Positions 19,244-49,271 of a stretch of 64,000 nucleotides of DNA are shown piece by piece; the stretch's first letter is position 1; each line of letters opens with the position of its first letter. This stretch comes from Gemmatimonadaceae bacterium (lineage in GTDB: Bacteria; Gemmatimonadota; Gemmatimonadetes; Gemmatimonadales; Gemmatimonadaceae): assembly GCA_036002925.1 (NCBI GenBank), contig DASYSU010000256.1:5216-69215 (forward strand), written 5' to 3'. The translations under genes were made by a program, and so were the position numbers. Below the pieces are notes generated by a model that was not told the origin of the DNA, did not search any database, and saw nothing but the letters and a program-made list of their open reading frames with translations.

Positions 19244-19267
19244 TTGGCTCGCTCGGAAAGAAAGGGA

Positions 19268-23080: not shown

Positions 23081-23088
23081 GCTACGTT

Positions 23089-25171: not shown

Positions 25172-25182
25172 CCGCGCCCAGC

Positions 25183-28437: not shown

Positions 28438-28439
28438 CA

Positions 28440-29388: not shown

Positions 29389-29398
29389 GCCAGGCGAC

Positions 29399-29962: not shown

Positions 29963-29968
29963 GCGCGA

Positions 29969-31364: not shown

Positions 31365-31375
31365 GGAGGCGTTAC

Positions 31376-31738
31376 TTGAGCCACACCGTTCTTATCTGCG
31401 ACGACGCGATCTTCATGCGCACCATGGTCGGCGACATTCTCACGCAAGCGGGATTCGAGATCGTGGGGGAGGCCGAGACGGGGTTGCAAGCCGTCGAGAA
31501 ATATCAGCAACTCAAGCCCGACTTGGTGACGATGGACATCGTCATGCCAGACATGGGCGGCATCGACGCCGTGCGCGAGATCTGCAAGCAGGATCCGCAA
31601 GCAAAGATCTTGATGTGCAGCGCGATGGGCCAGCAGGCGCTCGTCGTCGAGGCGATTCAAGCCGGCGCGAAGGATTTCGTCGTCAAACCGTTTCAACCGA
31701 GTCGCGTGCTCGAAGCCGTGCAGCGCGTGTTAGGCTGA
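31376..31738 (+). CDS. cheY: CheY single-domain response regulator
   Basis: DD pair (LICDDA), phospho-Asp (VTMDIVMPDMGG), Ser/Thr (MCSAMG) and Lys (VVKPF) are all present. Confidence 0.9.
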   Translation: MSHTVLICDDAIFMRTMVGDILTQAGFEIVGEAETGLQAVEKYQQLKPDLVTMDIVMPDMGGIDAVREICKQDPQAKILMCSAMGQQALVVEAIQAGAKDFVVKPFQPSRVLEAVQRVLG

Positions 31739-31757
31739 GCGCTGCACACGCGTCGTC

Positions 31758-33686: not shown

Positions 33687-33688
33687 GG

Positions 33689-34312
33689 ATGCTCATGGAA
33701 GATCTCCGTTCGCTGAAGGCCATCCAACTGGACGCACTGCGCGAAGTTGCGAATATCGGCGCGGGTCACGCCGCCACGGCGCTGTCGCAGATGGTCGGCG
33801 AAACCATCATGATCAGCGTGCCGACGATCAACATCGCGCGGCTCGAGGATGTGCCACCGCAAGTCGGCGAGCCCGATCAACCTGTCGCGGCGGTGCTCAT
33901 GCACATGCTCGGCGATCTGACCGGACGAACGCTGCTCGTGTTTCCGCGCCGCACGGCGGTCCGTCTGGCCGAGCTGCTGCTGCATCGCCCGAGCCCGGCG
34001 GACACGTTCTCCGAAATGCAGCAGTCGGCGATCAAGGAAGCGGGAAACATTCTCAGCTCGGCCTACATGAACGCCCTCAGCGACTTCATGGGCATGATGT
34101 TGTTACCATCGCCGCCCAGCCTCGCGATCGACATGTCGACCGCGGTGCTGACGACGGCGTACCTCCAATTCGGCAGCGACAAGGATTATGTCTTCTGCGT
34201 CGAGAGCGAGTTTCGTCTGAGCGACATCGGCGAGAAACTGTCCGGTTATTTCCTGCTCCTTCCCGACGCCGCGTCGCTGCAAGCCATCCTCAAGGCCGTT
34301 CGCGTAGCCTGA
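33689..34312 (+). CDS. cheC: CheC-type CheY-P phosphatase
   Basis: Two copies of the E-x2-N-x22-P active-site motif are present (LREVANIGAGHAATALSQMVGETIMISVP and IKEAGNILSSAYMNALSDFMGMMLLPSPP). Confidence 0.8.
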   Translation: MLMEDLRSLKAIQLDALREVANIGAGHAATALSQMVGETIMISVPTINIARLEDVPPQVGEPDQPVAAVLMHMLGDLTGRTLLVFPRRTAVRLAELLLHRPSPADTFSEMQQSAIKEAGNILSSAYMNALSDFMGMMLLPSPPSLAIDMSTAVLTTAYLQFGSDKDYVFCVESEFRLSDIGEKLSGYFLLLPDAASLQAILKAVRVA

Positions 34313-34315
34313 GCC

Positions 34316-37003
34316 ATGGTTCTCACGTCCGAGCGTGACCGCGACGTACTTCGGTCGTTCGCCCGCCGGATCGATCCGTCGGACGCCGGGGCGCACAACA
34401 ACCTCGGCGTCTTGTATTACAACAAGGGATTGTACGAGGAAGCGGTCAGTGCGCTGATGAAGGCGCTCGAGCTCGACGGAAAAATGCAGGTCGCGCGCCG
34501 CAACCTCGAGATCGCGTACTTCAATACTGGCTATTACGATACTCGAATACCCGAGCTCCGCGAACGTCTGCGCTCGCGTCCCGAAGACCGTGACGCGCGG
34601 TGGGAGCTTGGTCGCACGTTCGCGTTGCTGGGACAACACGAGGAAGCGGCTGAAGAGTTCCGCGTCCTGTTGCAGCACAACGCGAATGACGTCGGCGCGC
34701 TTCTCCAGCTCGCGCTTGCCGAAAAGCAGGCCGGCGACATGGAACGGGCCCAATCGTGCGTCGAACAGGCGCTCGTGCTCGACCCCGAGAGCTCGCTTCT
34801 TCAGTTCACGCTTGGTGAGGTGCTCTATCATCGCGGATTGAACGAGGAAGCGCTGCGTGCGCTCGAGCGCGCGATCGAGCTCAATCCGGAGAACCATGAC
34901 GCACTCTATCTCATGGGTTTCGTCCTCGGCGACATCGGACGACATGAGGAGGCGCAGGCAGTCACCCGCCGCGCGATCAAGCTCAATCCGACGCTCTCAC
35001 GCGCGCACGCCAACTTAGCGATCGATCAACAACGCGCGGCGCAGACGAACGGCAACGAGGCGTCGGCCAAGAAAGAGCTGCAGGTGTCGGGCGAAGGACA
35101 GCTCGCGCGCTACAACCTGGGCCTCGCCTTTCGCAGCAAGGCGTATTACGCCGAGGCGTTGCGTGAATACCGTGCCGCGCTCGAGCGTGGCGAAGAGCGC
35201 GATCTCGTTTTACAAGCGATGGCCGAGGTCCACCTGCTCATGCGTCAGCCCAAGGAAGCGCTGGCGCTCTATGATGAACTGCTGCAGCGCCAATGTGATA
35301 GCCCAAAGCTATGGAACGAGCGCGGCGTGTCGCTGCACCAGCAGGGTCGGTTCGCCGACGCGGAGGAGAGCTATCGCCGGGCGTTGCAATCGGAGCCCGA
35401 GTACGCGATCGCGCACAACAACCTGGGCGTCGCCTTGTACCACCGTGGCGCCGTCGACGATGCGGTTACGGCATTTCGAACCGCGCTCCATGAGGAGCCC
35501 GGATTCGCGAAGGCGCGACTGAATCTGGCGCTGCTGCTGAGCCGCGCGAAGCGTTTTCCAGCGGCGCTCGAAGCCTACCGACTCGTGCTGAGCTCCGCGC
35601 CGGAGCACCCGGTGGCGTGGAATGGCATCGGTGTCGTGCTCGCCGAGCTGCGCAAGTTCGAGGACGCGCGCAACGCATTCGCCCGGGCGATTCAAGCACG
35701 GCCGGAGTTCGCCGAAGCGCACTACAACATGAGCTTCACGCTCTCCAACCTCGGCGATTTCGAGGGCGCGTTGCGCGAAACCAAACGCGCGCTCGAGCTC
35801 GACCCGTACTATGTCGCGCAGAAGTTCGAGCTCGCCATGGACGTCGAGTACGAGGACCCGGATCTGTCGATCCAGCCGGATCTGGGGAGCGAGCGCGCGG
35901 CCGACGCCGCGATCGCCGACTTCGCGTTCGACCCAAAAACGCTCGACTCGCTGTTCACCGAGCTGACGCCGGTCGTCGAGCCGCCGCCTCGGAACCGCAA
36001 CACCGACTCGTCGCCCTATGCAATGGCGACGGATTACCTGTCGAAGGGATTGTTCGATCGCGCGTCGGCGGAGATCAACCGCGCGATGGCGCGAGGCAAT
36101 GCACGCGCTGACGGTCTCGCCATGCTGGGCGACGTGTTCGCGAAGCAGGGATTGTTCGGCGAAGCGTTGGAGCGATACCGCGACGCACTGCAGATGCAGC
36201 CCGACCTTCGTGCCGCGTCGATCGGCGAGGCGTGGTCGTTGGTCCGTCTCGGACGCGCGACCGAAGCACGGCCGCTCGCCGAGCGCCTGGCGAAGCAACA
36301 TCCGGACGACGTCGATCTGCTGATGCTTGTCGCGACGGCGTGCGCGGATTCCGGCGATCCGGCCGCCGCGCTCTCGGCCCTCGAGAAGGCGCGTCGCGTC
36401 GCGCCGATGCGGGCCGATATTCACCAGCGCATCGGCGACATCGCCGGCTCCTTGGGCGACAGCGACGGCGCGGTCTCCGCGTACCGGCATGCGCTGCAGT
36501 TGGATTCGGACTTCGCCGTAGTGCGATTCCAGTTGGCTCGACTGCTCCAGTCGAAGGGACACGATCGCGTCGCCGAAGAGGAACTCGTCGCGGCGCTCGA
36601 CGCAGTCCCCACATATGCGGAGGCGACGCTCGAGCTCGCGACATTGCGCCGACGATTGGGTCGGCCCGCCGAGGCGCTCACGCTGCTCGTCGATCTGCTC
36701 CATCGCGATCCCTATCACTTCGACGCCCTCATCTCGCTCGGCGAGACGCTGCTGGCGCTCGGACGAAAGCGCGACGCCGTCCACGCATTCACGCGTGTGC
36801 TCCGGTTCGATCCGTCGCACATCGGCGCGTTGTTTTACGAGGGCGCGATCCTCGTCGAGCAGCATCGCTATCGCGACGCGATCGCTCGCTGGGAGAAAGT
36901 CGTCGAGCTCGGACCAGCGACTGAATACGCGCGCCGCGCCCGACGCGACATGCGCACCGCGGCTGATCTGCAGCGCATCCTCTCGCCGCGAGCGAGGCAC
37001 TAG
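34316..37003 (+). CDS. Large tetratricopeptide-repeat protein (895 aa)
   Basis: TPR consensus (W/L-G-Y-A-F-A-P spacing) recurs throughout. Examples are AHNNLGVLYYNKGLYEEAVSALMKALELD and AHNNLGVALYHRGAVDDAVTAFRTAL. No TM, HAMP or MCP signalling motif was seen. Confidence 0.75.
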   Translation: MVLTSERDRDVLRSFARRIDPSDAGAHNNLGVLYYNKGLYEEAVSALMKALELDGKMQVARRNLEIAYFNTGYYDTRIPELRERLRSRPEDRDARWELGRTFALLGQHEEAAEEFRVLLQHNANDVGALLQLALAEKQAGDMERAQSCVEQALVLDPESSLLQFTLGEVLYHRGLNEEALRALERAIELNPENHDALYLMGFVLGDIGRHEEAQAVTRRAIKLNPTLSRAHANLAIDQQRAAQTNGNEASAKKELQVSGEGQLARYNLGLAFRSKAYYAEALREYRAALERGEERDLVLQAMAEVHLLMRQPKEALALYDELLQRQCDSPKLWNERGVSLHQQGRFADAEESYRRALQSEPEYAIAHNNLGVALYHRGAVDDAVTAFRTALHEEPGFAKARLNLALLLSRAKRFPAALEAYRLVLSSAPEHPVAWNGIGVVLAELRKFEDARNAFARAIQARPEFAEAHYNMSFTLSNLGDFEGALRETKRALELDPYYVAQKFELAMDVEYEDPDLSIQPDLGSERAADAAIADFAFDPKTLDSLFTELTPVVEPPPRNRNTDSSPYAMATDYLSKGLFDRASAEINRAMARGNARADGLAMLGDVFAKQGLFGEALERYRDALQMQPDLRAASIGEAWSLVRLGRATEARPLAERLAKQHPDDVDLLMLVATACADSGDPAAALSALEKARRVAPMRADIHQRIGDIAGSLGDSDGAVSAYRHALQLDSDFAVVRFQLARLLQSKGHDRVAEEELVAALDAVPTYAEATLELATLRRRLGRPAEALTLLVDLLHRDPYHFDALISLGETLLALGRKRDAVHAFTRVLRFDPSHIGALFYEGAILVEQHRYRDAIARWEKVVELGPATEYARRARRDMRTAADLQRILSPRARH

Positions 37004-37005
37004 CG

Positions 37006-38049
37006 ATGGCGATCGAGGGACCGCTCCGCGAGCTCGGCATCCACGACGTCTTTCAGCTCCTCGACCTGAGCCGAAAGACAGGGATGCTGCGCGTCTCCTC
37101 GGAGCTCCGCGAGGACGAGGGGCTCGTCTGCTTCGACGGGGGGCGCGTCGTCCAAGCAACGATTCGCAGCAAGACGCTTCCGATGGAGATGGTGCTGCTC
37201 CAGGCCGGCCGAATTACCGAGTCGGATCTCGAGCGCGCGCGGGCGAAGCGGCAAAACGGGCGGGCCGGACGCGAGATCGTGCATCTGCTCGTCGACGTCG
37301 GCGCGATCACGCACAAGGAGCTCGAGCGCCAGCTCCGACTGCAGCTCGAGAGCGTCGTGTTCGAGCTCATGTCGTGGCGCGAAGGGTTCTTCTCGTTCGA
37401 GGAACGCACGCGCGATGAGATGCCGGGCGAGACGTTGATCACCGTCTCGACCGAGTCGCTGCTCATGGAAGGCGCCCGGCGCATCGACGAATGGTCGCGC
37501 ATCGCGGACATCGTTCCGAATGTCGCGGCGGTTCCGGAGCTCGCCCCGATCGACTCGGCGCGCGACGGAGCCATGCTCGATCTCTTGCCGCACGAGTGGC
37601 AGGTGTTGACGATGATCGACAGCGAGCGCGATCTGCGTGAGATCGCCGCCGTGCTGGCCCGCGATGAATTCGAGATCGCGAAGATCGCATACGGACTCGC
37701 GACGACCGGCATCATCACGATGCGGTCGCCAAAGCGACCGACGCCGGAGCTCGATCGCAGCGGCGTCGAATCGCGCCTCGAGGCGGCGCGCGCGTACACG
37801 ACCGCCGGGCGTCACGCCGAAGCGCTCGACGAGCTCCGGCGCGCCGTTCAGGAAGATCCGCTGACGTCGCGCGCGCATCTCGATCTCGCGTTCGCCGCGG
37901 CGCGCACCGGCGATCTCTCCGCGGCGCGCGCGAGTTGGCAGCACTTTCTCCGCTTGACGCCTCGCGATCCAGCGGCGCCGCTCGTGCACAGCGCGCTCGG
38001 CGCGTTGGCCGAGCTCGAACGAGTGCTCGAGGTGCACGCCAATGGCTGA
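37006..38049 (+). CDS. PATAN (DUF4388) domain protein with C-terminal TPRs, paralog 1
   Basis: N-terminal GPLRELGIHDVFQLLDLSRKTGMLRVSS...GRVVQA is the DUF4388/PATAN signature. SLLMEGARRIDEW mid-region. TPR-like C-terminus. Confidence 0.65.
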   Translation: MAIEGPLRELGIHDVFQLLDLSRKTGMLRVSSELREDEGLVCFDGGRVVQATIRSKTLPMEMVLLQAGRITESDLERARAKRQNGRAGREIVHLLVDVGAITHKELERQLRLQLESVVFELMSWREGFFSFEERTRDEMPGETLITVSTESLLMEGARRIDEWSRIADIVPNVAAVPELAPIDSARDGAMLDLLPHEWQVLTMIDSERDLREIAAVLARDEFEIAKIAYGLATTGIITMRSPKRPTPELDRSGVESRLEAARAYTTAGRHAEALDELRRAVQEDPLTSRAHLDLAFAAARTGDLSAARASWQHFLRLTPRDPAAPLVHSALGALAELERVLEVHANG

Positions 38050-38851
38050 CGACATCCGCCGTTGGAGCGATGAGTTGGCGCGCGATCCGTCGAGCCTCGT
38101 GTTCCTGCAGCTCGGCGAATCACTGCGACGACAGGGGCAAGTGGACATCGCGCTCAAAATCGCGCTTCGAGGACTCGAGCGGCATCCACGCAATGCCGAG
38201 GCACACGACCTCGTGGCGCGAATCGCGGTCGACCGGCTCGACTTCTCGCGCGCGCTCGAAGAGTGGGAAACGGTGCTTCGCTTGGTGCCCGACCACGTCG
38301 GAGCAATGAAGGGCCTCGGCTACGTCCATTTCCATCAAGGCCGCTTCGATCATGCGGAAGCGTATCTGAGCCAGGCTGCAGCCGGCGGAGCGGGAAGCGA
38401 CGTGTCGAACGCACTACAGACCATACGTCGCACTACCGGCATTGCACCGACATGGACCGGCGACCGGAATCCGGCGCCCGATCCGCAGCGAATCTTCGCC
38501 GATCTACTGCTCGACGACGGTCAAACGGCTCTGCTGCTCGACGGCAGCGGTTACGTGCTCGGCGGCTTGTATCTCGATTCAGTGGGCGACGACGTGTCGC
38601 AGGACATCGGCGCGCAGTTGAGCGGCATCTCCGATGAGGTCGAGCGCTCGATGCGCCATCTCGACATCGGAAACTGGCGGTCGATCATCTTCGAGACGCA
38701 GGCCGCGGTCGTGGCGATGGCGCCCGCGGCGGACGACAGTCTGGTCGTTGTCGCGGCGTCTCGTTCGACCCCGCTCGGACTCCTGCGTCGGCTTCTCGAC
38801 CGATGCGCCGAGCGGGCAGCCGGGTGGCTGGACGGCGGGAGACGGCCATGA
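38042..38851 (+). CDS. TPR-Roadblock/LC7 fusion protein
   Basis: N-terminal TPRs (LGESLRRQGQVDIALKIALRGLERHPRNAEAH...). C-terminal roughly 110 aa have a Roadblock-like pattern (GQTALLLDGSGYVLGG...SIIFETQAAVVAMAPAADDSLVVVAAS). Confidence 0.55.
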   Translation: MADDIRRWSDELARDPSSLVFLQLGESLRRQGQVDIALKIALRGLERHPRNAEAHDLVARIAVDRLDFSRALEEWETVLRLVPDHVGAMKGLGYVHFHQGRFDHAEAYLSQAAAGGAGSDVSNALQTIRRTTGIAPTWTGDRNPAPDPQRIFADLLLDDGQTALLLDGSGYVLGGLYLDSVGDDVSQDIGAQLSGISDEVERSMRHLDIGNWRSIIFETQAAVVAMAPAADDSLVVVAASRSTPLGLLRRLLDRCAERAAGWLDGGRRP

Positions 38852-39195
38852 GCCCCTTCACGTCGATGCTCGAATCGCTGACCCGCCAGCGTGGCGTGCG
38901 GGCCAGCTTGATCGTCTCCGAGAACGATGGGCTGATTGTCGATTCAAATCTCCGGTTCGGACAAGATGGCGACCGCATAGCTGCGCTGGCCGCGTCGATG
39001 TACCGCAAGGCGCGGTTATCGGCGGGGGCGGCGCGGCTGGGCGCCGTGTCGTTCCTCCAGCTTGATGCCGAGCGTGGACGGATATGCGCCGTCGGTGGCC
39101 GCAGTGATCTCGTCATCGTGGTCGTCGCCGATCCGGCGGCGAACGTAGGTCTGATGCGCGTGGAATTATTCAGGGCGCTGGAGTCGCTGGAATGA
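38848..39195 (+). CDS. Roadblock/LC7 domain protein
   Basis: GVRASLIVSENDGLIVDSN...AALAASMYRKA...SFLQLDAERGRICAVGGRSDLVIVVVADPAANVGLMRVEL is a typical Robl/LC7 pattern. ATGA overlaps at both ends. Confidence 0.65.
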   Translation: MSPFTSMLESLTRQRGVRASLIVSENDGLIVDSNLRFGQDGDRIAALAASMYRKARLSAGAARLGAVSFLQLDAERGRICAVGGRSDLVIVVVADPAANVGLMRVELFRALESLE

Positions 39196-39671: not shown

Positions 39672-39689
39672 CGCCTCCCGCATCGTCCT

Positions 39690-40313
39690 GTGTCGCTCGT
39701 CAACTACGCCACCCGCGAGATCACGTGCAAGATCGTCTACTACGGACCCGGCCGGTCCGGTAAGACGACCAACCTGCACTACATCTACGGTCAGGTGCCC
39801 GATGATCGGAAAGGCCGCATGGTGTCGCTCGCGACGCAGACGGACCGCACGCTGTTTTTCGATTTTCTTCCGCTCGATCTCGGCTCGATCTCGGGATTCA
39901 CCACGAAGTTCCAGTTGTACACGGTGCCCGGTCAGGTCTACTACCAGGCGACGCGAAAGCTCGTGCTCCAGGGTGCCGATGGCGTCGTTTTCGTCGCCGA
40001 CTCGCAAGCACGACAGCTCGGAGAGAACATCGAGAGCTTTCAGGACCTCCACGCGAATCTCGCCGAGCAGGGAATCGATGCGCGCACGGTTCCGCTCGTG
40101 CTGCAGTACAACAAGCAGGACTTGCCGCGCGATCTCATCCTCACCACGGCCGAGCTTTCCGACGCGATCAATTTTCGCGGCGTGCCCGAGTTTCCCGCCG
40201 ACGCGCTGCACGGTCCGGGCGTGTTCGAAACCCTTCGCTCGATCGCCGAGGTCGTACTGAAGCGCCTCAGCGCGGGCACGAGTGCCGGCGTCGTGGCTGG
40301 CGCGCGGGGATGA
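39690..40313 (+). CDS. mglA: MglA-family Ras-like small GTPase
   Basis: KIVYYGPGRSGKTTNL P-loop. Intrinsic Arg in TQTDRTLFFDFLP. The MglA-specific switch II TVPGQ replaces DxxGQ. NKQD G4 box. By eye it is near-colinear with M. xanthus MglA as I remember it. GTG start. Confidence 0.9.
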   Translation: MSLVNYATREITCKIVYYGPGRSGKTTNLHYIYGQVPDDRKGRMVSLATQTDRTLFFDFLPLDLGSISGFTTKFQLYTVPGQVYYQATRKLVLQGADGVVFVADSQARQLGENIESFQDLHANLAEQGIDARTVPLVLQYNKQDLPRDLILTTAELSDAINFRGVPEFPADALHGPGVFETLRSIAEVVLKRLSAGTSAGVVAGARG

Positions 40314-42241
40314 ACCGAATGCAGATCGACTCCCGGCTGCGCTTCGACAATTTCGTCGTTGGCTCGGCCAACCGGCTTGCCGTGGCCGCGGCGCACGCGG
40401 TCGCCGAATCGCCGGGAGCGGTCTACAACCCGCTGTTCATGTACAGCAGCTCGGGGCTCGGCAAGACGCACCTCATGAGCGCGATCGGCAATCAGGTCGG
40501 GCACCGCAGCGACCTCGTTGTGGAGCTCGTGACGCTCGATGATTTCGTCGAGGAACTGCACGAGGCGATTGCCGCCGGCCAATCCGAGCGGCTCAAGGAA
40601 CGCTACTTGAAGGTCGGCGTGTTGCTGATCGACGACATGCAATTCCTCACCGGTCATCGCGAGACGCAGACGGAATTGCTCCGCATCTTCAACGCGCTGC
40701 AAGCGGACGGCCGACAGATCGTGATGACGAGCGACCGGCCGCCGAACGAGATCGCCGACGTCGATGAGCGTTTGCTCACGAGGCTCTCCGGCGGGTTGAT
40801 CGTCGACATGGGCGCGCCCGATTACGAGACCCGCATGGCCATTCTCAAGGCCAAGTGTGAAGAGCGCGGCGTTCGGTTTCGCGGCGGCGTGATCGACGAG
40901 CTCGGACGCCTCGAGTTCAAGAACGTTCGTGAGTTGCAGGGCGCCCTCAATCGGCTGATCGCGTTCCAAACATTGGGCGGCGAGCAGGTCGAGCCGGAGG
41001 CGGTGCTCACCATTCTCGGCGATCTGGCGGACCAACGCGCCCGCTCGCCGGCGCCACGCCCCGTCGGCGGCGAATTCGCGAACTTCCTGACCGACATCGC
41101 GTCGGCCGTTGCGCACCACGTGGAGCAGTGGAAGACGAGGATCATCGAAGGCATCGAGTACTGGAAGAGCGAGGGCTTTCACACGGGCGCGCTCGAGCGT
41201 GTGTTGGCGGATCGCACGCCGCCGACGAGCGTCGAGACGGTGCTGCGCGAGTTCGAGGCAGGCGTCACCAAACTGCGCGACTTGCAACGCCAACTTCTGC
41301 GCCTCGACGCCGCGCTCGCGGCGCACGACGCATTCCGCGACCCCGATCGACTGAGCGAAGCCGAGGATTTGCTCGAGCGTGCGCTGCGCACGTCGACGCC
41401 GCCGCCGGGTCCTTCGGCGGCGTTCACGCGCGCGGGGTTCGAGGTCAGCGTGAGCAACCAGCTCGCGGTCCGCGCGGCTGACGCGATCGTCGGTGTTCCC
41501 GGCTCGCGCTACAATCCGCTGTTCATCCATGGGCCGAGTGGGGTCGGCAAGACGCACTTGCTCAACGCGATCGGCAATGGGTTGGTTCAAGGCGCCGCCG
41601 GTTCGTCCGCGGTTGCGTGCGTTCCCGCTCAGCTGTTCATCGACGAGCTGATCGCCGCGCTTCAGGAGGGAACGATCGATCGGTGGCGCTCGCGATATCG
41701 CGCCGCATCGGCGCTGCTGTTGGATGACGTCCAATTCGTCGCCGGCAAAGAGCGCACGCAGGAAGAACTGTTCCACGTCTTCAACGCGCTCTATGCGGAA
41801 GGCAAGCAACTCGTCATCGCGAGTGATCGTCCGCCGCGCGAGTTGTCGGGTCTCGAGGAACGGCTGCGTTCGCGCTTCGAGGGCGGATTGGTCGTCCAGA
41901 TGCAGTCGCCGGATCACGCGCTGCGCGAGCGGCTGTACTCGCGCTACCTTCGGGAGCTCGGTGTCGAGCCGACGGCTGAGATGGTGCAGTATCTGTCGAC
42001 GAGGCCGGCGTTGAGCGTTCGTGAGATCATCGGAACGGCGAATCGCGTCGTCGCGTCGGCCGAAGTGGCGGCCGTGCCGGTGACGATGGAGTTCATTCGC
42101 GCCGCCCTCGAGCCCGACGACAGCGGCCCGGCCGGCGCCGCGGTCAAGCGCGCCGCTGCCGATGGATTCTTCCTCGACCGAGAGAAGGTCCTGTGGGAAT
42201 GGCCCGACGCGTCAACGCGGCTGATCGAGGAGCTGCGATGA
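40310..42241 (+). CDS. Protein with two tandem DnaA-type AAA+ modules and no DnaA domain IV (not the replication initiator)
   Basis: Module 1: FDNFVVGSANRLA, Walker A SSGLGKTHL (about nt 40460), Walker B LLIDDMQFL, sensor I IVMTSDRPP, sensor II NVRELQGAL. Module 2: Walker A GPSGVGKTHL (about nt 41546), LLLDDVQFV, LVIASDRPP, box VII ERLRSRFEGGL, SVREIIG. No helix-turn-helix DnaA-box-binding tail is present. ATGA overlap with the mglA stop. Confidence 0.75.
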   Translation: MNRMQIDSRLRFDNFVVGSANRLAVAAAHAVAESPGAVYNPLFMYSSSGLGKTHLMSAIGNQVGHRSDLVVELVTLDDFVEELHEAIAAGQSERLKERYLKVGVLLIDDMQFLTGHRETQTELLRIFNALQADGRQIVMTSDRPPNEIADVDERLLTRLSGGLIVDMGAPDYETRMAILKAKCEERGVRFRGGVIDELGRLEFKNVRELQGALNRLIAFQTLGGEQVEPEAVLTILGDLADQRARSPAPRPVGGEFANFLTDIASAVAHHVEQWKTRIIEGIEYWKSEGFHTGALERVLADRTPPTSVETVLREFEAGVTKLRDLQRQLLRLDAALAAHDAFRDPDRLSEAEDLLERALRTSTPPPGPSAAFTRAGFEVSVSNQLAVRAADAIVGVPGSRYNPLFIHGPSGVGKTHLLNAIGNGLVQGAAGSSAVACVPAQLFIDELIAALQEGTIDRWRSRYRAASALLLDDVQFVAGKERTQEELFHVFNALYAEGKQLVIASDRPPRELSGLEERLRSRFEGGLVVQMQSPDHALRERLYSRYLRELGVEPTAEMVQYLSTRPALSVREIIGTANRVVASAEVAAVPVTMEFIRAALEPDDSGPAGAAVKRAAADGFFLDREKVLWEWPDASTRLIEELR

Positions 42242-42255
42242 GGAGGGCCATCTAG

Positions 42256-43875
42256 ATGGCCATTCGCGGCAGCCTGAAAGAGGCCAGCCTTCCCGACGTG
42301 CTTCAACTCCTCGCCATGGGGAAGAAGACCGGCTGCCTGAGTGTCACGCATCGCTCGAACTTCGGGAACATCTACTTCGAGCGCGGGCGCATTTGTTATG
42401 CGTCGATCGTCAATCGGCGCGACCGACTCGGTGACGTGCTCGTGAAGAGTGGTGCGCTCGCGCAATCGCAGCTGGATGCGGCGATTGCGTTGCAGGATCG
42501 CCGGCGCGACAAACGGTTGGGGGAGTTGTTGGTCGAAATGGGCGCGCTGCGGATCGAGGAGCTGCACGACGCGATCGAGGTGCAGATTCGCGAGGCGGTC
42601 TACTACCTGTTTACGTGGAACCAAGGGACGTTCAACTTCGAAGCGGACGTCGCTCCCGATCAGCTCGACCACGTCGTGTCGATCAATCCCGAGTCGTTGC
42701 TGCTCGAAGGTGCGCGCCGCGTCGACGAGTGGGGCCTGATCGAGAAGAAGATTCCCACGTTCGATCTGATTTTCGAGGCGGATCGCCCGCATGCGTCGGT
42801 GAGCGACGTCGAATTGACGAACGAGCAACGCATCGTGCTCGATCTGGTCGACGGGGCGCGCGACGTGCAAGCGATCGTCGACCAGTCGGGGCTGGTCGAG
42901 TTCGAGGTCGGGAAGGCGCTGTATGGACTGGTCACCACCGGATTCATCCACCGGATCGGCAAGAGCGCCGGTCCGCCGCAGGCGTTGTCCGAAGGCCGGG
43001 CGGAAGAGCATCGCAATCTGGGAATCGCGTTCTACAAAACGGGCATGCTCGACGAGTCGCTCCGCGAATTTCGACGCGTACTCGAGCTGCGTGGAAACGA
43101 CGCGTCGGCGCGATTCTACGTCGGGCTGGTGTTGTCGCGTCAAGGTCAATGGGACGAAGCCGTGGCGACGTTCGCCGATGCCGCCGCCCAACCCGGGGCC
43201 AAGCCGGCGATCTTTCACAATCTCGCATACGCGCTCGAGCAGCAGCGTCGATACGACGAGGCGCGCATCGCGCTCGACGAGGCGATTCGGCGGGGCGGCT
43301 CGAAGAATCCACGCATGCAGACGTCTGCCGGCATCATCTGTCTCCTTGCCGGAGATCTCGAGGGCGCCGACGCAAAACTCTCCGCGGCGCGAGCACTGTT
43401 CGCCGGCGGGGCACCGACCGCGGCGTGGTTTCACTACATGGCACTGACCGCCGCCCTTCTCGGAGACTCGACGCGCGCCATCGAGACGCTCAACCAAGGT
43501 GTTGCAGCGCATCCGCACGCGGCCGCGCTGCTCAACAACCTCGCGGTGGTCTTGGAGCGAGCCGGCCGCTACGACGAAGCGCGGGCTGCCGCGGACCGAG
43601 GCATCCATGAGGATCCGACGCTGCCGCAATTGCACAAGAATTTCGGCGATCTACAATACCGAGCGACGCAGTACGACGACGCGCTGGAGTCGTATCTCCG
43701 CGCCACCAAGGCGCATCCCGAGTTGGGCAGCGACGTGTATCTCAAGCTCGGGAACATTCGCCTGCGCCGTCGCGAGCGCGACGAGGCCGTGCGGTGCTGG
43801 GAGCGTGCGCTGGAGCTCGACCCGGACAACGCCATCGTGCGCACGAATCTCGAGTCGGTTCGTCAGGTCTTCTGA
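42256..43875 (+). CDS. PATAN (DUF4388) domain protein with C-terminal TPRs, paralog 2
   Basis: GSLKEASLPDVLQLLAMGKKTGCLSVT...GRICYA and SLLLEGARRVDEW parallel the 37006-38049 protein. The C-terminal half is TPR. A good AGGAGG sits 9 nt upstream. Confidence 0.65.
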   Translation: MAIRGSLKEASLPDVLQLLAMGKKTGCLSVTHRSNFGNIYFERGRICYASIVNRRDRLGDVLVKSGALAQSQLDAAIALQDRRRDKRLGELLVEMGALRIEELHDAIEVQIREAVYYLFTWNQGTFNFEADVAPDQLDHVVSINPESLLLEGARRVDEWGLIEKKIPTFDLIFEADRPHASVSDVELTNEQRIVLDLVDGARDVQAIVDQSGLVEFEVGKALYGLVTTGFIHRIGKSAGPPQALSEGRAEEHRNLGIAFYKTGMLDESLREFRRVLELRGNDASARFYVGLVLSRQGQWDEAVATFADAAAQPGAKPAIFHNLAYALEQQRRYDEARIALDEAIRRGGSKNPRMQTSAGIICLLAGDLEGADAKLSAARALFAGGAPTAAWFHYMALTAALLGDSTRAIETLNQGVAAHPHAAALLNNLAVVLERAGRYDEARAAADRGIHEDPTLPQLHKNFGDLQYRATQYDDALESYLRATKAHPELGSDVYLKLGNIRLRRRERDEAVRCWERALELDPDNAIVRTNLESVRQVF

Positions 43876-44690
43876 TGTCCGAGTCGCAGCTCGGAGACTT
43901 CCAGGTCCTCACGCGCAAGATCACGCTCGAGCGCGGGTTCGGGTGCGCCAGTTATAAAGAGAAGTGTCTTCGCCGGCGGATCGCGGTGCGGATGCGCGCC
44001 CGGGGCGTTCACACGTACGACGATTACGCGCGAATCCTCGATGCCGACGCGGGTGAATACGAGCGTCTGCTCGACGTTCTGACGATCAACGTCACCAAGC
44101 TCTTTCGGAATTGGGACGTCTACGCGTCGATCGCCGCGAACGTCGTCCCCGCGTTGTGGCTTCGAACGACGCCCTCGATCCGTGTGTGGAGCGCCGGCTG
44201 CTCGTCGGGCCAGGAACCGTACTCGCTCGCCATTCTGTTCCACCGCTATGTGGCGACGAACGGCATGCTTCCCCAAATCGGGCGGGTTCAGGTGCTCGGC
44301 ACGGATATCGACCGACTTTCCTTGGCCGCCGCGGAGCGCGGACAATTCGAGTCAGCCGATTTCTCGGATACACCCGATGAGCTGCGTAGCCGATACTTCT
44401 CCGCAGCACCGCCGTTCGTCGTCTCCGCGGGCGTTCGCAGCCTCGTGCGGTTCGAGCGCCGCGACCTGCTCGGTGATCCCGCACCGCCGGGAAAGTTCGA
44501 GCTGATTGTCTGCCGCAACGTCTTGATTTACTTCGACCGCGAAACCCAAGAACAATTGTTCGAGAAATTCTATCAGGCCCTCGCGCCCGACGGCTTTCTG
44601 GTCCTCGGCAAGGTCGAGACGCTGTTGGGCCCCATCCGCCCGCGGTTCGCGCCGGTTGACTCACGCGAGCGAATCTTTCGCCGTCTATGA
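43875..44690 (+). CDS. cheR: Chemotaxis protein methyltransferase CheR
   Basis: SYKEKCLRRRIAVRM N-domain. SAM-binding IRVWSAGCSSGQEPYSLAI. CRNVLIYFD. I chose the MSESQL start (TGATG junction). The ORF-track start is 43794. Confidence 0.88.
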   Translation: MSESQLGDFQVLTRKITLERGFGCASYKEKCLRRRIAVRMRARGVHTYDDYARILDADAGEYERLLDVLTINVTKLFRNWDVYASIAANVVPALWLRTTPSIRVWSAGCSSGQEPYSLAILFHRYVATNGMLPQIGRVQVLGTDIDRLSLAAAERGQFESADFSDTPDELRSRYFSAAPPFVVSAGVRSLVRFERRDLLGDPAPPGKFELIVCRNVLIYFDRETQEQLFEKFYQALAPDGFLVLGKVETLLGPIRPRFAPVDSRERIFRRL

Positions 44691-45178
44691 GGGACACCTC
44701 CACCGAGGTTCTCGTCAAAGTCGCCGATTACGCGGTGGCCGCGAGCGGCACGATCGCCACGATCGGCCTCGGCTCGTGCGTCGCGATCATCCTGTATGAC
44801 GGCGTGGCACACGTCGGCGGTATGGCGCACGTGCTGCTGCCGAACGAGGCGATGTCGCGAGATCGCTCGAACCCCGCGAAATTTCCCGCGTCGGCCGTTC
44901 CGCTGCTGCTCGACGAGATGCGTCTGCTCGGGGCGACGCGCGAACGCGTGCGGGCGAAGATCGTTGGCGGCGCGAGCATGTTCGCCAATCTCATTCCGGC
45001 CGGCGGCATCAACATCGGTGAACGCAACATCACCGCCGTTCGCGGTGCGCTGTCCGAGGCGAAGGTGCCGATTGTCGCCGAAGATGTTGGCAGCGACCAT
45101 GGTCGGAGCGTGTTCCTGTTCCTCGATGACGGCCGCGTCGAAGTGCGGTCGCTGAAGAAGGGTTCGCGTGTCCTCTGA
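44687..45178 (+). CDS. cheD: Chemoreceptor glutamine deamidase CheD
   Basis: GLGSCVAIILYD (catalytic Cys), GMAHVLLP (His) and GERNI motifs. Confidence 0.85.
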   Translation: MRDTSTEVLVKVADYAVAASGTIATIGLGSCVAIILYDGVAHVGGMAHVLLPNEAMSRDRSNPAKFPASAVPLLLDEMRLLGATRERVRAKIVGGASMFANLIPAGGINIGERNITAVRGALSEAKVPIVAEDVGSDHGRSVFLFLDDGRVEVRSLKKGSRVL

Positions 45179-46247
45179 CAAGCTGCGCGTTCTCGTCGTC
45201 GACGACAGTGCGTTCATGCGGAGACTCACGTCACAGATCATCGACGACTCGGGGGAGTTCGCCGTCGCCGGCACGGCACGCAATGGATACGACGCGCTGA
45301 AACAGATTCACGAGCTCAATCCCGACATCGTCACGCTCGATGTGGACATGCCGGAGCTCGACGGATTGAGCGCGCTCGGCTACATCATGAGCGAGACGCC
45401 GCGACCGGTGGTGATGCTGAGCGCCGGCACCACGAATGGCGGACACACGGCCACGTTGCGGGCACTCGAGTTGGGCGCCGTCGACTTCGTGCTCAAGCCG
45501 TCGGGGGCGATCAGTCTGGATCTGCGAACGATTTCAGATCGGTTGCTCTCGGCGCTTCGCGGCGCGGCGACCGCGAACATGAGTGGACTGCGCATGCTGG
45601 CGCGCCCGGCGCCCGAGGGATTCGGACACAAGGTCGATCCCGTGTCGCGCTCCGATCGCGCGACGCGCGCCGTCGTCGTGGCGTCGTCAACGGGCGGTCC
45701 ACGCGCACTCTCGGCGATCGTTCCGCAACTATCGCGCGGACTCGCGGCTGCGGTGTTGGTCGTGCAACACATGCCGGCCGGATTCACCAAGAGCCTGGCG
45801 CAGCGACTCGATACCGTCAGCCCCATCCGAATCGACGAGGCGGAGGACGGAGAGCCCGTCGTGCATGGACGCGTGTATTTGGCGCCGGGTGGATTTCATA
45901 TGACCGTTCGCGACGACGGCGAGGGCCCGGCGATCGGGCTCGACAAGTCGGCCTCACTCTGGGGCGTGCGACCAGCTGCCGATCTCTTGTTTCGTTCCGC
46001 CGCGGCGGTGTTTGGCGCGTCGACGGTTGCGGTCGTTCTGACGGGGATGGGCCGCGACGGCGCCGAAGGAACACGCGCAGTCCGCGAGGCCGGTGGGCTT
46101 GCCATCATTCAGGACCGCGAGTCCGCGACGATCTACGGCATGCCCCAGGCGGCGATCCAGTGCGCGGGTGCCGACCGCGTCGCTCCGCTGCAAGACATCG
46201 GCGGCGTCATCGCGGAATTCGTCGACGTGGTTGCCCATGTTCCGTGA
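45168..46247 (+). CDS. cheB: Chemotaxis response regulator protein-glutamate methylesterase CheB
   Basis: Receiver domain (VVDDSAFMR, TLDVDMPELDG). Esterase triad contexts ASSTGGPRAL, VQHMPAGFT and GMGRDGAEG. Confidence 0.92.
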   Translation: MSSDKLRVLVVDDSAFMRRLTSQIIDDSGEFAVAGTARNGYDALKQIHELNPDIVTLDVDMPELDGLSALGYIMSETPRPVVMLSAGTTNGGHTATLRALELGAVDFVLKPSGAISLDLRTISDRLLSALRGAATANMSGLRMLARPAPEGFGHKVDPVSRSDRATRAVVVASSTGGPRALSAIVPQLSRGLAAAVLVVQHMPAGFTKSLAQRLDTVSPIRIDEAEDGEPVVHGRVYLAPGGFHMTVRDDGEGPAIGLDKSASLWGVRPAADLLFRSAAAVFGASTVAVVLTGMGRDGAEGTRAVREAGGLAIIQDRESATIYGMPQAAIQCAGADRVAPLQDIGGVIAEFVDVVAHVP

Positions 46248-46686
46248 CGGTGCCGCGCGGTTTCTCGTCTTTCGCATAGGGGCCGAGCGTTTCGGCGTCG
46301 AGCTTCCCGCGGTCGACGAAGTCATTGATGCACCCAGCGTTCAGGCGGTTCCCGACGCACCGGCAACAGTGCTCGGGGTGTCGACGATTCGCGGAGAGTT
46401 GATCACGCTGTACGACCCACGGCCGCTGCTTCATGTCGAGGGTCGACTCGACGGCGCCGCGTTGTTGTTTGTTCGAGACGACCGGCGAGTCGGTGTGGCG
46501 ATCGAAGACGTGTACGACGCGATCAAGATCGAGGACGGCGATTTGCTCAAGGCGCCAGGCGGCGGCGCCGACGCGTCCGACGGGATTCTCGTCGGCTTGG
46601 TTCGTCGTGCAGGAGAGTTGATCGGGATACTCGATGCCAACGCGCTGCTCGATGCGGCGATCGCCGGCGACGGAGAGAGGAAATGA
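46237..46686 (+). CDS. cheW: CheW-like coupling protein 2
   Basis: FLVFRIGAERFGVELPAVDEVIDAPSVQAVPDAPATVLGVSTIRGELITLYD. The start is set at MFRDG. The ORF-track start is 46093. Confidence 0.8.
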   Translation: MFRDGAARFLVFRIGAERFGVELPAVDEVIDAPSVQAVPDAPATVLGVSTIRGELITLYDPRPLLHVEGRLDGAALLFVRDDRRVGVAIEDVYDAIKIEDGDLLKAPGGGADASDGILVGLVRRAGELIGILDANALLDAAIAGDGERK

Positions 46687-47168
46687 AGAAGGACGTCGTG
46701 CAGCTTGTGATCTTTCGTCTCGGAGCCGACCTGTTCGCGGCCGACGTGTTCGACGTCGAGCGCGTGCTGCGGTACGCGCAGCCGAACACGGTGCCGGGCG
46801 TCCCGCGCTGGATCGCGGGACTGATGCCATATCGAGACACTGTCATCCCGGTCGTCGACATGCGTCGGCGGATCGAGCTGCCCGACGCGACGATCACGCC
46901 CGAGACGCGCCTCCTCGTGTTTTTCACCACCAATGGCTGGATCGGCGCGATCGTCGATTCGGTGTCGGAGGTCGCGGTGCTTCCGGCGGCGAATGTGACG
47001 CCGCCCCCAGCGTTGTTCCACGGGCTGCCCGCGCAGTTCATGCGCGGCATCGCCAAAGTCGGGGAACACGTCGTCGTCGTACTCGACGTCGATCTGGTGT
47101 TGTCGAGCAGCGAACGCCTTGCGTTCGAGCAAAGCGTCGAAGCACTGGAGCCGGCTGTACGTGCCTGA
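46683..47168 (+). CDS. cheW: CheW-like coupling protein 3
   Basis: LVIFRLGADLFAADVFDVERVLRYAQPNTVPGVPRWIAGLMPYRDTVIPVVDMRRR. ATGA overlap with the upstream cheW. Confidence 0.8.
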   Translation: MKKDVVQLVIFRLGADLFAADVFDVERVLRYAQPNTVPGVPRWIAGLMPYRDTVIPVVDMRRRIELPDATITPETRLLVFFTTNGWIGAIVDSVSEVAVLPAANVTPPPALFHGLPAQFMRGIAKVGEHVVVVLDVDLVLSSSERLAFEQSVEALEPAVRA

Positions 47169-48012
47169 AAGCGTCCCCGTAACGCTGCGCGCCCGGCATG
47201 ATGCCCTCGGCGGGCGGCTGGATGCGCCTGATGCCGCGAGAGAGCTCGACGAACTGAAGGCGGAGATCGGCGCGCTCTTCAAGGCGGTGGAGCTGGAGCT
47301 GAGCCAACTGAATGCGCTGCGCGCCGATGTGCTGCAACTCGTCGACCGATGGAAGGCGACGAAGGCCACGCAGCCGTCGCTCGCACCCCAGTTTGTCGCT
47401 GAGCGGCCCGTGGTCCATGCGGATCACATCGGTGCGTCGACCTTCGTCGAGAAAGGGTGGAGCAAGATTTCAGTCGGCGATTACGAGGGCGCCGAACAGG
47501 TGCTTCGCAAGGCGCTGGAGCTCGCGCCCAACGACGTGGCGGCCGCGTCGATGTTGGGCTGGGCGGAAATGCTGCAAGAGAAGTTCGATGACGCGCTCCT
47601 CAACTTTCAGAAGGTGCTCGCCCGCGAGCCCCAGAATGCGTTGGCCCGTATCAACGTCGGGTATATTTGTCTCAAGAAGCGGATTTTTGGTGAGGCGATC
47701 GAGCATTTGTCGCGGGCGATTCGTCTCGACAACGACAAGAAGGCGACGCTGTACGCGCACTTCTATCTCGGGTTGGTGTATCTCGAGCGCGACATGTTCG
47801 AGGACGCGCAGACATTCTTTCAGAAAACGCTCAACCTCGGCCCGAACTTGATCGAGGCGTACTACGAGCTCGGTCGCGCGTACTGGCTCAATGGCCGCCG
47901 AGAACATGCAATGGCCACGTGGAAGGCCGGCTTCGAGGCGAACAAGTTCAATCCGTGGGGAAAACGCTGCGCAGAAGTGCTCACGACGGTGGAGGCAGGC
48001 GGCTCGCCTTAG
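47119..48012 (+). CDS. Coiled-coil plus TPR protein
   Basis: N-terminal coiled coil (ELDELKAEIGALFKAVELELSQLNALRADV), then four to five TPRs. The start is uncertain (TTG 47119 or GTG 47161). Confidence 0.65.
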   Translation: MRSSKASKHWSRLYVPESVPVTLRARHDALGGRLDAPDAARELDELKAEIGALFKAVELELSQLNALRADVLQLVDRWKATKATQPSLAPQFVAERPVVHADHIGASTFVEKGWSKISVGDYEGAEQVLRKALELAPNDVAAASMLGWAEMLQEKFDDALLNFQKVLAREPQNALARINVGYICLKKRIFGEAIEHLSRAIRLDNDKKATLYAHFYLGLVYLERDMFEDAQTFFQKTLNLGPNLIEAYYELGRAYWLNGRREHAMATWKAGFEANKFNPWGKRCAEVLTTVEAGGSP

Positions 48013-49010
48013 GCGCGGTTCTGTCGCGCGCGCGCCGCGTGTTGTCGGTTGCGGCGCTGATTCCGCTGGCTCTGACCGCCGCCGCAGCGCAAGAAGAAGC
48101 TCCCGAGCGGCTCGACCGCGGCCGATTCACGGCCGTCTATTTTCCCAGCGACCAAACGCTGACGCAGTCATTGTTGGATTACTCGGTCCGCAACGACACG
48201 TTTCCCGGATTGCCGCGGCCGCGCCAGCACGTCTGGCTGGCGATCGCGCCCAACCGCAAGCGATTCCGTGAGTGGATCGGTCCGGGCGCGCCGGAGTGGG
48301 GCGCGGCGATCACGTTTCCCGAATCGCGTCGCATCGTGATGCAGGGGCGATTCGCCGGAGCCGACGCCGGCGATCCGCGCGAAGTGTTGCGTCATGAGCT
48401 CGCGCACTTGGCGCTGCACGAGTACTTGGGCGACGCACCGCCACGCTGGTTCGACGAAGGCTACGCGAGCTACGCTGCGCACGAATGGCGGAGAGACGAC
48501 GCGTTGGCGGCCAACGTCGCGTTGGCATTGAAGGGAACGCCGACCCTCGACGAGCTAGATGCCGAATTCAACGCCGGCTCGACGACGGCGCAGAACGCGT
48601 ACGCGCTCGCGTATCGTGCGGTGGTGGAGCTCGCGTCGCTCGACACGGCGTCCGGTCTCGCGCGGTTTCTCAGCGCCTGGAAGGATACGGGCTCGATGGA
48701 CCGCGCCTTCCGCGCGACCTTCGGCATTACGCTGGTCGGATTCGAGCAGCGATGGCAACAGCGCACGCGCCGTCGCTACGGAGCGCTCGCGCTCGTTGGC
48801 GATTTTGCCATCGGGGGACTGGTGTTGCTGGTGATCGTGTTCCCGTTGTACGTGACCAGGCGCCAACGAAATCGCCAACGATTGGCGGCGCTGCTTGCGG
48901 CAGACGAGGCCGCCGAGCGGGCGGCGCGACGCAGCGCGATCGAGGCACTCCTGCGCGGGGATGATGAGACCGATTTGCGTGGCGGAACGCCCGAGATTCC
49001 TCCGTCTTAA
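47919..49010 (+). CDS. Peptidase-MA-like (HExxH) protein with signal peptide and C-terminal TM anchor
   Basis: REVLRHELAHLALHEYLGDAPPRWFDEGYASYAA has the same HExxH...W..EGYA.Y signature as the 975-aa protein. Signal-like RARRVLSVAALIPLALTAAAAQ. C-terminal TM LVGDFAIGGLVLLVIVFPLYV. The start is ambiguous (47919, 47955 or later). Confidence 0.55.
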   Translation: MEGRLRGEQVQSVGKTLRRSAHDGGGRRLALGAVLSRARRVLSVAALIPLALTAAAAQEEAPERLDRGRFTAVYFPSDQTLTQSLLDYSVRNDTFPGLPRPRQHVWLAIAPNRKRFREWIGPGAPEWGAAITFPESRRIVMQGRFAGADAGDPREVLRHELAHLALHEYLGDAPPRWFDEGYASYAAHEWRRDDALAANVALALKGTPTLDELDAEFNAGSTTAQNAYALAYRAVVELASLDTASGLARFLSAWKDTGSMDRAFRATFGITLVGFEQRWQQRTRRRYGALALVGDFAIGGLVLLVIVFPLYVTRRQRNRQRLAALLAADEAAERAARRSAIEALLRGDDETDLRGGTPEIPPS

Positions 49011-49136: not shown

Positions 49137-49271
49137 ATGATGTGGTGGGGAATCGCGGCGTTGGTGATCATTGCCGGGTTCGCCGATTTGGCGCGGGGCG
49201 GGGAAACGATCGCCCCGATCTTGCTTGCGATTGGATATTGCATCCTCGTACCCGTTGCAATTCTGAAATAG
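49137..49271 (+). CDS. Candidate 44-aa two-TM membrane peptide, not in the ORF track
   Basis: My own translation gives MMWWGIAALVIIAGFADLARGGETIAPILLAIGYCILVPVAILK. A GAGG lies just upstream, and the promoter is at 49063. Confidence 0.3.
   Translation: MMWWGIAALVIIAGFADLARGGETIAPILLAIGYCILVPVAILK

Follow-up and report, generated by a model that had tools for sequence, protein, structure and literature searches.

A tandem DnaA-type AAA+ protein conserved beside polarity and chemosensory genes in Gemmatimonadota

A 64-kb stretch of DNA from a Gemmatimonadaceae bacterium (64,000 nucleotides of contig DASYSU010000256.1; we refer to this whole stretch as the window) carries, on the forward strand at positions 40310–42241, an open reading frame (ORF) of 643 amino acids (aa) that encodes two complete copies of the DnaA domain III ATPase in a single chain. 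The gene directly follows that of the polarity GTPase MglA, within a block of chemosensory, Roadblock and TPR genes. Judged by its sequence, the protein is a Gemmatimonadota-specific DnaA paralogue without the parts that find origins or recruit helicases. We put the chances at about even that it works within a polarity module, as an ATP-gated switch or a scaffold for assembly, and not as a replication factor.

Pfam family Bac_DnaA (PF00308) matches the tandem protein twice (E = 2e-104), and neither Bac_DnaA_C nor DnaA_N has a Pfam match in it. The NCBIfam DnaA model TIGR00362 likewise aligns twice, each time over positions 102–345 of 437, which is domain III alone. Domains I and II are not present, module 1 beginning at residue 6–7. 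Module 1 aligns to domain III of Bacillus subtilis DnaA at approximately 50% identity without internal gaps (E = 6e-53), and identity between the two modules is 42%. Walker A reads SSSGLGKTH in module 1 (K52), with serine in place of the first glycine, and GPSGVGKTH in module 2 (K414), followed by Walker B sequences LLIDD (D108/D109) and LLLDD (D472/D473), sensor I SDR at 141–143 (D142/R143) and 505–507, box VII RLLTR (154–158; R154/R158) and RLRSR (518–522; R518/R522), and sensor II VRE at 206–208 (R207) and 570–572 (R571). From Walker A to Walker B, both modules align to domain III of DnaA without indels, and the initiator-specific helical insert is therefore kept in each. Module 2 of the window's clade also has K480-E-R482-T483, which match the basic motif with which DnaA engages single-stranded DNA (K243/R245 in Escherichia coli; K188/R190/T191 in Aquifex aeolicus). 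An alternative start at M4 (ATG at 40319) is the annotated start of some close homologues.

A model of the whole chain, computed with AlphaFold2 (AF2) on a 69-sequence alignment and starting at M4, so that its numbering is 3 below that of the ORF, has a mean predicted local distance difference test (pLDDT) of 84.9 and a predicted template modelling score (pTM) of 0.46. It contains two DnaA domain III folds, a helical region at 252–358, a stretch at 601–625 with pLDDT below 50 that is predicted to be disordered, and a short helix at 631–639 (model numbering). Its best PDB match by Foldseek is domain III of B. subtilis DnaA (8bv3; template modelling (TM) score 0.90). Because the pTM is only 0.46, the relative placement of the two modules, and with it any composite site formed within one chain, is not predicted.

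Modelled alone, the 130-aa linker between the modules forms a confidently predicted helical bundle (pLDDT 87.9, pTM 0.71) with no significant fold neighbour in the PDB (best Foldseek E = 4.1). Pfam gave no match to the linker even at E ≤ 10, nor did Bac_DnaA_C match the linker or the tail at that threshold, and hhalign related the linker to full-length DnaA with a probability of 0.1%; Pfam, hhalign and Foldseek together rule out that the linker is a diverged DnaA domain IV or another known domain. Across 30 diverse members it conserves E255, F256, F259, W274, G289, T292, L295, D344 and P345. The tail ends in a motif that reads REKxVWxWP....RLIEE in the same alignment, with E625, K626, W631, P632 and E640 conserved at 90% or above. 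A C-terminal DNA-binding fold is ruled out, the last approximately 40 residues being disordered in the AF2 model save for one short helix.

These results agree in most respects with an initial annotation made from the sequence alone. It had proposed two complete domain III copies in this ORF, on which Pfam (with two Bac_DnaA matches and none to Bac_DnaA_C), NCBIfam, alignment and Foldseek concur, and every Walker A, Walker B, sensor I and sensor II motif that it quoted was located. Its helical linker of about 130 aa is what AF2 predicts, and the lack of domains I, II and IV is seen alike by Pfam, NCBIfam, hhalign and AF2; neither a diverged domain IV nor any further DNA-binding fold came to light in the linker or tail. 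Its view that only module 2 keeps the box VII arginine context stands for the flanking residues, which do differ, but not for the arginines themselves, since R154 and R158 are both present in module 1.

The tandem protein does not qualify as a DnaA: it has neither domain I nor domain IV, and its gene has no origin context. The window holds no DnaA box of the form TTWTNCACA (0.68 expected) and no other dnaA-like sequence, a canonical dnaA was detected neither in the window nor in 85 loci, and the neighbours of the gene are mglA and a PATAN-TPR gene, with no dnaN context. Gemmatimonas genomes presumably carry an ordinary dnaA. These observations bear out the early proposal that the protein is not the replication initiator, made there from the lack of a nearby dnaN gene or DnaA-box cluster. 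The summed TIGR00362 score (508.6, cut-off 343.9) passes only because two modules add up, and it is this sum, exceeding the cut-off of a DnaA equivalog model, that explains the misleading names of homologues in public databases, where they appear as 'DnaA/Hda family protein' or, wrongly, as 'chromosomal replication initiator protein' (many of them at the Joint Genome Institute, JGI).

Homologues are abundant. The first search listed 120 full-length proteins of 636–647 aa and 75–95% identity from Gemmatimonadaceae metagenome bins, and an exhaustive search of 50%-identity representatives added dozens of full-length clusters down to 32% identity. Altogether, full-length homologues number in the thousands; they come from independent assemblies, agree in length and in linker, and range in identity from 95% to approximately 30%. 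The nucleotide-site residues of both modules are conserved in the alignment of 30 diverse members. In a neighbour-joining tree, a comparison that the initial annotation had proposed, sequences of module 1, module 2 and canonical DnaA domain III fall into three distinct groups. Branching follows a similar order inside the module-1 and module-2 groups, which fits a single ancient fusion followed by co-divergence. The closest named canonical DnaAs come from Armatimonadota and Clostridia, not from Gemmatimonadota. A recent duplication of the host dnaA is thus unsupported, as the modules form their own clades and their nearest named DnaAs belong to other phyla.

We scanned one genome per GTDB species with a profile of the linker, using a narrow alignment that favoured one subfamily. 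The scan yielded 306 confirmed loci, and the best 80 of these were inspected; all 80 are labelled Gemmatimonadota save two, the taxon labels of metagenome bins being loose. One exception (L012) is labelled Acidimicrobiia and the other (L041) Solirubrobacterales. L041 and L042 are both contigs of 4,070 bp with the same match position, identity and E value, labelled Solirubrobacterales and Gemmatimonadales, respectively. The two outlying labels probably reflect mis-binning and not true occurrences, and apart from them no member of the tandem family was found outside Gemmatimonadota among the named matches.

Two giant proteins outside the window, P0189 (1990 aa) and P0191 (1876 aa), came up in the search of representatives and belong to another lineage. 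They carry an N-terminal MshEN/GspE_N domain, from the domain family of pilus motors and c-di-GMP, and two Bac_DnaA modules, spaced by a non-DnaA region of approximately 1,200–1,300 aa in which, on visual inspection, E, A, K and R abound. In the tree their modules join canonical DnaA, which makes them a second tandem domain III architecture of separate origin. There is a hint of a connection in GspE_N (PF05157), a domain family typical of the PilB1 N-terminus, the region bound by PATAN domains.

In the window, the tandem gene belongs to a block of approximately 18 kb (30888–49010) whose genes lie on a single strand with short gaps or overlaps. Their order is cheW-cheY-cheA-cheC/X-TPR (895 aa)-PATAN/TPR-TPR/Roadblock-MglB-Roadblock3-MglA-tandem ATPase, continuing with PATAN/TPR-cheR-cheD-cheB-cheW(-cheW)-TPR-Peptidase_MA_2. 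When the window's 19 neighbouring proteins were mapped onto the best 80 species loci, the same order of 17–19 genes was recovered in all 80 wherever flanking sequence exists, as well as in one 1.7-Mb contig. Terminator-like sites inside the block are no more frequent than chance, and the best-scoring one (49194–49217) follows the peptidase gene. No receptor (methyl-accepting chemotaxis protein, MCP) domain was found among the genes assigned in the block; its chemosensory content is cheA, cheY, cheC/X, cheR, cheD, cheB and three cheW genes, and it also holds four TPR-rich and two PATAN proteins.

The gene directly upstream is mglA in 79 of the 79 loci that hold both genes. Its product in the window is, from the alignment, a close orthologue of Myxococcus xanthus MglA and has a Roadblock/LC7 partner encoded next to it, so that the neighbours of the tandem gene constitute an MglA–MglB module. 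The mglA stop and the tandem start overlap by 4 nt in 60/79 loci, including the ATGA that had been reported for the window, and by 1 nt in 5/79; the tandem stop and the PATAN-TPR start overlap by 1 nt in 65/73 loci and are separated by 14 nt in the window. Stoichiometric co-expression with the GTPase, which the initial annotation took the overlap to imply, goes too far, as overlapping codons support translational coupling but not a 1:1 ratio. Across the loci, the median identity is 75% for MglA versus 45% for module 1. The linkage to mglA, presented at the outset as a property of the gene, holds without exception in these Gemmatimonadales-type loci but does not extend to the rest of the family.

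A search with a divergent representative (P0178) returned 868 proteins, of which the named ones are Gemmatimonadota, including Longimicrobiales, and defined a second subfamily for which seven genomic contexts and, for residue counts, 122 proteins were inspected. All seven contexts share the backbone yggS-divIVA-(pnp)-ileS-(lspA)-rluD, followed directly by the tandem gene, a PATAN-TPR gene and a Peptidase_MA_2 gene, and none of the seven contains mglA or che genes. In two of the seven a Roadblock gene precedes the tandem gene, encoding a distant counterpart of Roadblock-like protein 3 of the window. Both subfamilies lie between rluD and the peptidase gene, which identifies them as positional orthologues; either the che and mgl genes entered around the core pair in one lineage, or the other lineage lost them. 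The PATAN-TPR protein is kept in both subfamilies and MglA is not, so that the former, and not MglA, is the deepest conserved partner; the Peptidase_MA_2-like protein, encoded at the end of the block in either subfamily, counts as a third conserved partner. The WP pair of the tail motif occurs in 111/122 proteins of the second subfamily, and the window protein has all of the features that define the family: two DnaA domain III modules, linker residues W274, G289 and D344-P345, the WxWP motif and a PATAN-TPR gene downstream. The dcw neighbourhood found in the window is not conserved in the second subfamily. In one second-subfamily locus (L085, 14561–21974), a gas-vesicle cluster (gvpA, F/L, G, K) with a gene for an ArsA-like ATPase lies downstream of the core trio.

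The two modules have diverged in what they retain. By its residues, module 1 of the second subfamily is fully canonical (Walker A lysine and Walker B DD in 122/122, sensor I D142 in 121/122 and R143 in 120/122, sensor II arginine in 119/122, arginine finger in 122/122), whereas module 2 has lost the nucleotide site (Walker A lysine, Walker B DD and sensor II arginine each in 0/122) and keeps the finger (114/122). For the first subfamily we banded 79 non-redundant sequences by identity to the window protein (≥70%, 40–70% and <40%). Walker A, Walker B and sensor II are kept in both modules. The module-2 finger R522 is present in 13/13, 34/35 and 27/31 sequences of the three bands, and the module-1 finger R158 in 13/13, 34/35 and only 9/31. 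Sensor I of module 2 is mostly lost outside the window's own ≥70% clade (D506 in 13/13 versus 2/35 in the 40–70% band). Sequences of the <40% band and of the second subfamily no longer have K480, and module 1 has H-R-E or Q-x-E at the equivalent place. R522 is the most conserved catalytic feature of module 2 across the family, and the ATP-site residues of module 1 are nearly invariant in both subfamilies. Read together, alignments and gene order show what stays constant across the family: in module 1 the ATP site, in module 2 the arginine finger, and besides these the linker, the tail and a PATAN-TPR partner. Within the clade of the window, module 1 and module 2 alike seem fully competent. The comparison lends substance to the early suggestion that the two halves may differ in function, and the constancy of the module-1 ATP site together with the module-2 finger leads us to infer a composite catalytic site.

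AAA+ proteins of the initiator clade work as switches that assemble in an ATP-dependent manner. At the composite site proposed here, ATP would be bound and hydrolysed by module 1, with the arginine finger supplied by module 2 either within one chain or head-to-tail between chains. The obligate partner would be the PATAN-TPR protein encoded downstream, together with the MA-type peptidase-like protein. Docking would probably involve the linker and the C-terminal WxWP...EE peptide, and it can be speculated that the acidic C-terminal peptide docks on a TPR domain encoded in the block. In the lineage of the window, this core would have been built into a chemosensory and polarity supercluster (CheA/W/Y/C/R/D/B, MglA, MglB, other Roadblock and TPR proteins), where the ATP state of the tandem protein and the GTP state of MglA would jointly set a polar or motility-related output, under a control analogous to that of Frz over MglA/MglB in Myxococcus. 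PATAN domains bind the N-terminal domain of the pilus motor PilB1 and are an output domain of cyanobacterial chemosensory regulators (bioRxiv 10.1101/2021.06.11.447907). PATAN genes are known neighbours of mglA and mglB, and the survey of prokaryotic small GTPases that mentions them reports no DnaA-like or other AAA+ neighbour of mglA (PMC4316618). A bolder proposal, which we regard as possible but less likely than not, is that the tandem ATPase, as the nucleotide-driven core, forms with the PATAN-TPR protein and the MA-peptidase-like protein a new polarity or positioning machine based on origin-free, DnaA-style, ATP-dependent oligomers, wired in Gemmatimonadales to the chemosensory pathway and MglA. 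If true, this would be the first case in which an AAA+ protein of the initiator clade has been turned into a switch for cell polarity, and the switch might also sense the state of replication or of the nucleoid.

Several points weigh against a switch or scaffold of this kind. The physical link of the tandem protein to the PATAN-TPR, MglA and Roadblock proteins rests on gene order, and the low pTM means that the composite site within one chain is not predicted by the model. The finger of module 1, kept in the window's clade and throughout the second subfamily, is unexplained by a purely intramolecular model in which module 2 acts on module 1, and its retention points to larger oligomers or to a different AAA+ protein as target. 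The strong likeness of module 1 to DnaA and the K-E-R-T of module 2 in the window both leave room for a role directed at nucleic acid or at DnaA. No pilus genes occur in the window, and the output may be type IV pili, flagella, division or something else.

The most serious rival, which we nevertheless consider unlikely, is Hda-like control: the tandem protein would dock on DnaA-ATP by way of the AAA+ interface and either trigger hydrolysis with an arginine finger or cap DnaA filaments, coupling the initiation of replication to the polarity or chemosensory state. The close, gap-free match of module 1 to B. subtilis DnaA and the retention of both box VII and both sensor II arginines would suit such a role, and the window's block does lie between divIVA-ileS-rluD and the dcw cell-division cluster. 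The invariant module-1 finger speaks for it as well: where module 2 cannot bind ATP, that finger needs another ATP site to act on. Yet strict and loose patterns alike find no beta-clamp-binding motif anywhere in the protein, the Hda model TIGR03420 scores 171.5 bits against a cut-off of 194.8, and the modules form clades of their own whose nearest named canonical DnaAs are those of other phyla. Divergence as fast as that of module 1 relative to MglA would be unexpected for a surface fitting the conserved DnaA, the constant gene partners are the PATAN-TPR and peptidase-like proteins and not replication genes, and the proximity to dcw is not kept in the second subfamily.

DNA-dependent positioning is a weaker rival, and we hold it to be quite improbable. 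Here the protein, like others of the initiator clade, would polymerise on single-stranded or nucleoid DNA in its ATP state and would anchor the chemosensory and polarity complex to the chromosome or set its spacing there, much as cytoplasmic chemoreceptors are positioned by the ParA-type protein PpfA. A cytoplasmic organiser is conceivable in that the che block has no receptor gene, and the helical insert retained in both modules and the K480-E-R482-T483 of module 2 in the window's clade are features such a protein might use; but the basic motif is not family-wide, neither the linker nor the tail yielded a helix-turn-helix or other DNA-binding fold, and module 2 of the second subfamily appears from its residues unable to bind nucleotide. 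That the gene is an assembly or sequencing fusion or a pseudogene, or that it encodes an IstB- or DnaC-type ATPase from a mobile element or a defence system, is a reading to which we attach next to no probability, the comparative data having already refuted it. An 80-bit Pfam score for IstB_IS21 and weak P-loop matches in PADLOC are what it can draw on, whereas NCBIfam gives IS21_help_AAA 99 bits against a cut-off of 200 and DnaC 36 against 357, and the PADLOC matches have E ≥ 4e-6 and no matched stretch. The tandem locus has no transposase or defence neighbours, its chromosomal position is fixed across the phylum, and the thousands of full-length homologues, down to approximately 30% identity, exclude the fusion or frameshift that the initial annotation had named as a possible objection.

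DnaA-type ATPases are known almost only as initiators (DnaA), inactivators (Hda) and loaders for helicases or transposition. A phylum-wide, two-module version in a polarity and chemosensory block suggests that the ATP switch of the initiator clade has been reused for cell organisation. It is a candidate ATP input to MglA polarity, in which MglA modules have so far been described as GTP-only, and offers a conserved partner for the poorly understood PATAN-TPR proteins. The family also provides a natural dissection of mechanism, one subfamily having two live modules and the other a dead module that keeps only its arginine finger. For genome annotation, labels derived from summed scores can mislead origin and dnaA calls in Gemmatimonadota genomes. 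Gemmatimonas species are culturable, which makes the hypothesis testable.

Table 1. Coordinates of the tandem ATPase gene, its parts and the surrounding block in the window.
Feature	Position	Strand	Basis
cheW, cheY, cheA, cheC/cheX	30888..34312	+	Gene assignment
895-aa TPR protein	34316..37003	+	Pfam; conserved position
PATAN (DUF4388) + TPR protein 1	37006..38049	+	PF14332, E = 7e-29
TPR + Roadblock fusion protein	38042..38851	+	Pfam
MglB-type Roadblock/LC7 protein	38803..39195	+	Robl_LC7, E = 1.8e-7; PDB Roadblock matches
Roadblock-like protein 3, 159 aa	39192..39671	+	Weak Robl_LC7 match, E = 0.006, below Pfam cut-off; conserved position
mglA, Ras-like polarity GTPase	39690..40313	+	M. xanthus MglA 5ymx, E = 1.9e-74, full length
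ATGA, tandem start codon over mglA stop codon	40310..40313	+	Sequence
Tandem DnaA-domain-III AAA+ protein	40310..42241	+	Two Bac_DnaA stretches; full-length homologues
Module 1 (aa 7–245), DnaA domain III	40328..41044	+	Motifs; B. subtilis DnaA alignment; Foldseek
Family-specific helical linker domain (aa 246–375, 130 aa)	41045..41434	+	AF2; conservation
Module 2 (aa 376–600), DnaA domain III	41435..42109	+	Motifs; module-to-module alignment
Predicted disordered tail ending in conserved motif REKvlWeWPd...RLIEElR	42110..42238	+	AF2; conservation
PATAN + TPR protein 2, 539 aa	42256..43875	+	PF14332, E = 6e-38; directly downstream in every context, both subfamilies
cheR, cheD, cheB, cheW, cheW	43794..47168	+	Gene assignment
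TPR protein, 297 aa	47119..48012	+	Gene assignment
Peptidase_MA_2-like protein, end of block in both subfamilies	47919..49010	+	Gene assignment; synteny

Within the block, the last 49 nt of the TPR/Roadblock fusion gene overlap the start of the MglB-type gene (38803), a position kept in all Gemmatimonadales-type loci. Upstream of the block, the window contains ftsH, folP, cdaA, yggS, divIVA, a phosphorylase gene (pnp), ileS, lspA and rluD, part of a backbone (17264–30949; ftsH-folP-cdaA-...-yggS-divIVA-pnp-ileS-dksA-like-lspA-rluD) that is conserved across the phylum. The order divIVA-ileS-lspA-rluD resembles that at the end of the Firmicutes division cluster. Downstream, further TPR genes precede the beginning of the dcw cluster, with mraW, ftsI and murE (54127–58857). 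Elsewhere in the window, on the reverse strand at 12174–15101, a 975-aa ORF has no credible Pfam domain and is overlapped by a 693-aa ORF on the opposite strand.

Neither a DnaA-like protein with two modules nor this gene block was found described in the literature searched, in line with the initial impression that a double-module precedent was lacking, and the nearest known systems each share only some of its features. Each module resembles DnaA in having an entire domain III, lid included, with both Walker motifs, sensor I, the arginines of box VII and sensor II, and Foldseek gives the TM score of 0.90 noted above. Unlike DnaA, the tandem protein has two such modules in one chain and neither domains I and II, which contact the helicase and DiaA, nor domain IV, which reads DnaA boxes; its gene sits amid signalling genes and not in an oriC/dnaN context, and its modules fall in separate clades. 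Hda and HdaA resemble it as paralogues that consist of DnaA domain III, without DNA-binding domains and with the arginine finger kept. Hda, however, is a single module of approximately 230 aa that carries an N-terminal clamp-binding motif of the QL[SP]LPL type and works with the beta clamp, whereas the tandem protein has two modules, a private linker of 130 aa and a C-terminal peptide, lacks a clamp motif and scores below the Hda cut-off. It belongs neither to Hda nor to DnaC/IstB.

With the MglA/MglB–Frz system of M. xanthus, the window shares a close MglA orthologue, an MglB-type Roadblock protein, TPR proteins and a Che-type pathway. It differs in that mglA is overlapped by the tandem ATPase gene and that PATAN-TPR proteins flank the block. 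To our knowledge, no AAA+ component is known in the Myxococcus module. The cyanobacterial PatA-type PATAN regulators PixG and PixE, which act on type IV pilus motors, are likewise encoded with chemosensory genes, but the PATAN domains of the window are fused to TPRs and not to a receiver domain, have a DnaA-like ATPase as partner and lie near no pilus gene.

The type II AAA+ proteins (p97/Cdc48, NSF and ClpB) also have two AAA+ modules per chain, one of which is often catalytically degenerate. They belong to the classic clade, whereas the tandem modules belong to the initiator clade, and Foldseek superposes the two poorly (TM score 0.25–0.30, root-mean-square deviation above 30 Å). The tandem protein presumably also lacks the N-domain and the substrate-threading pore loops typical of unfoldases. 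The inserts of the initiator clade favour open helical assemblies over closed rings. Set against all of these systems, the tandem protein places a known fold in an architecture and a functional setting that are both new.

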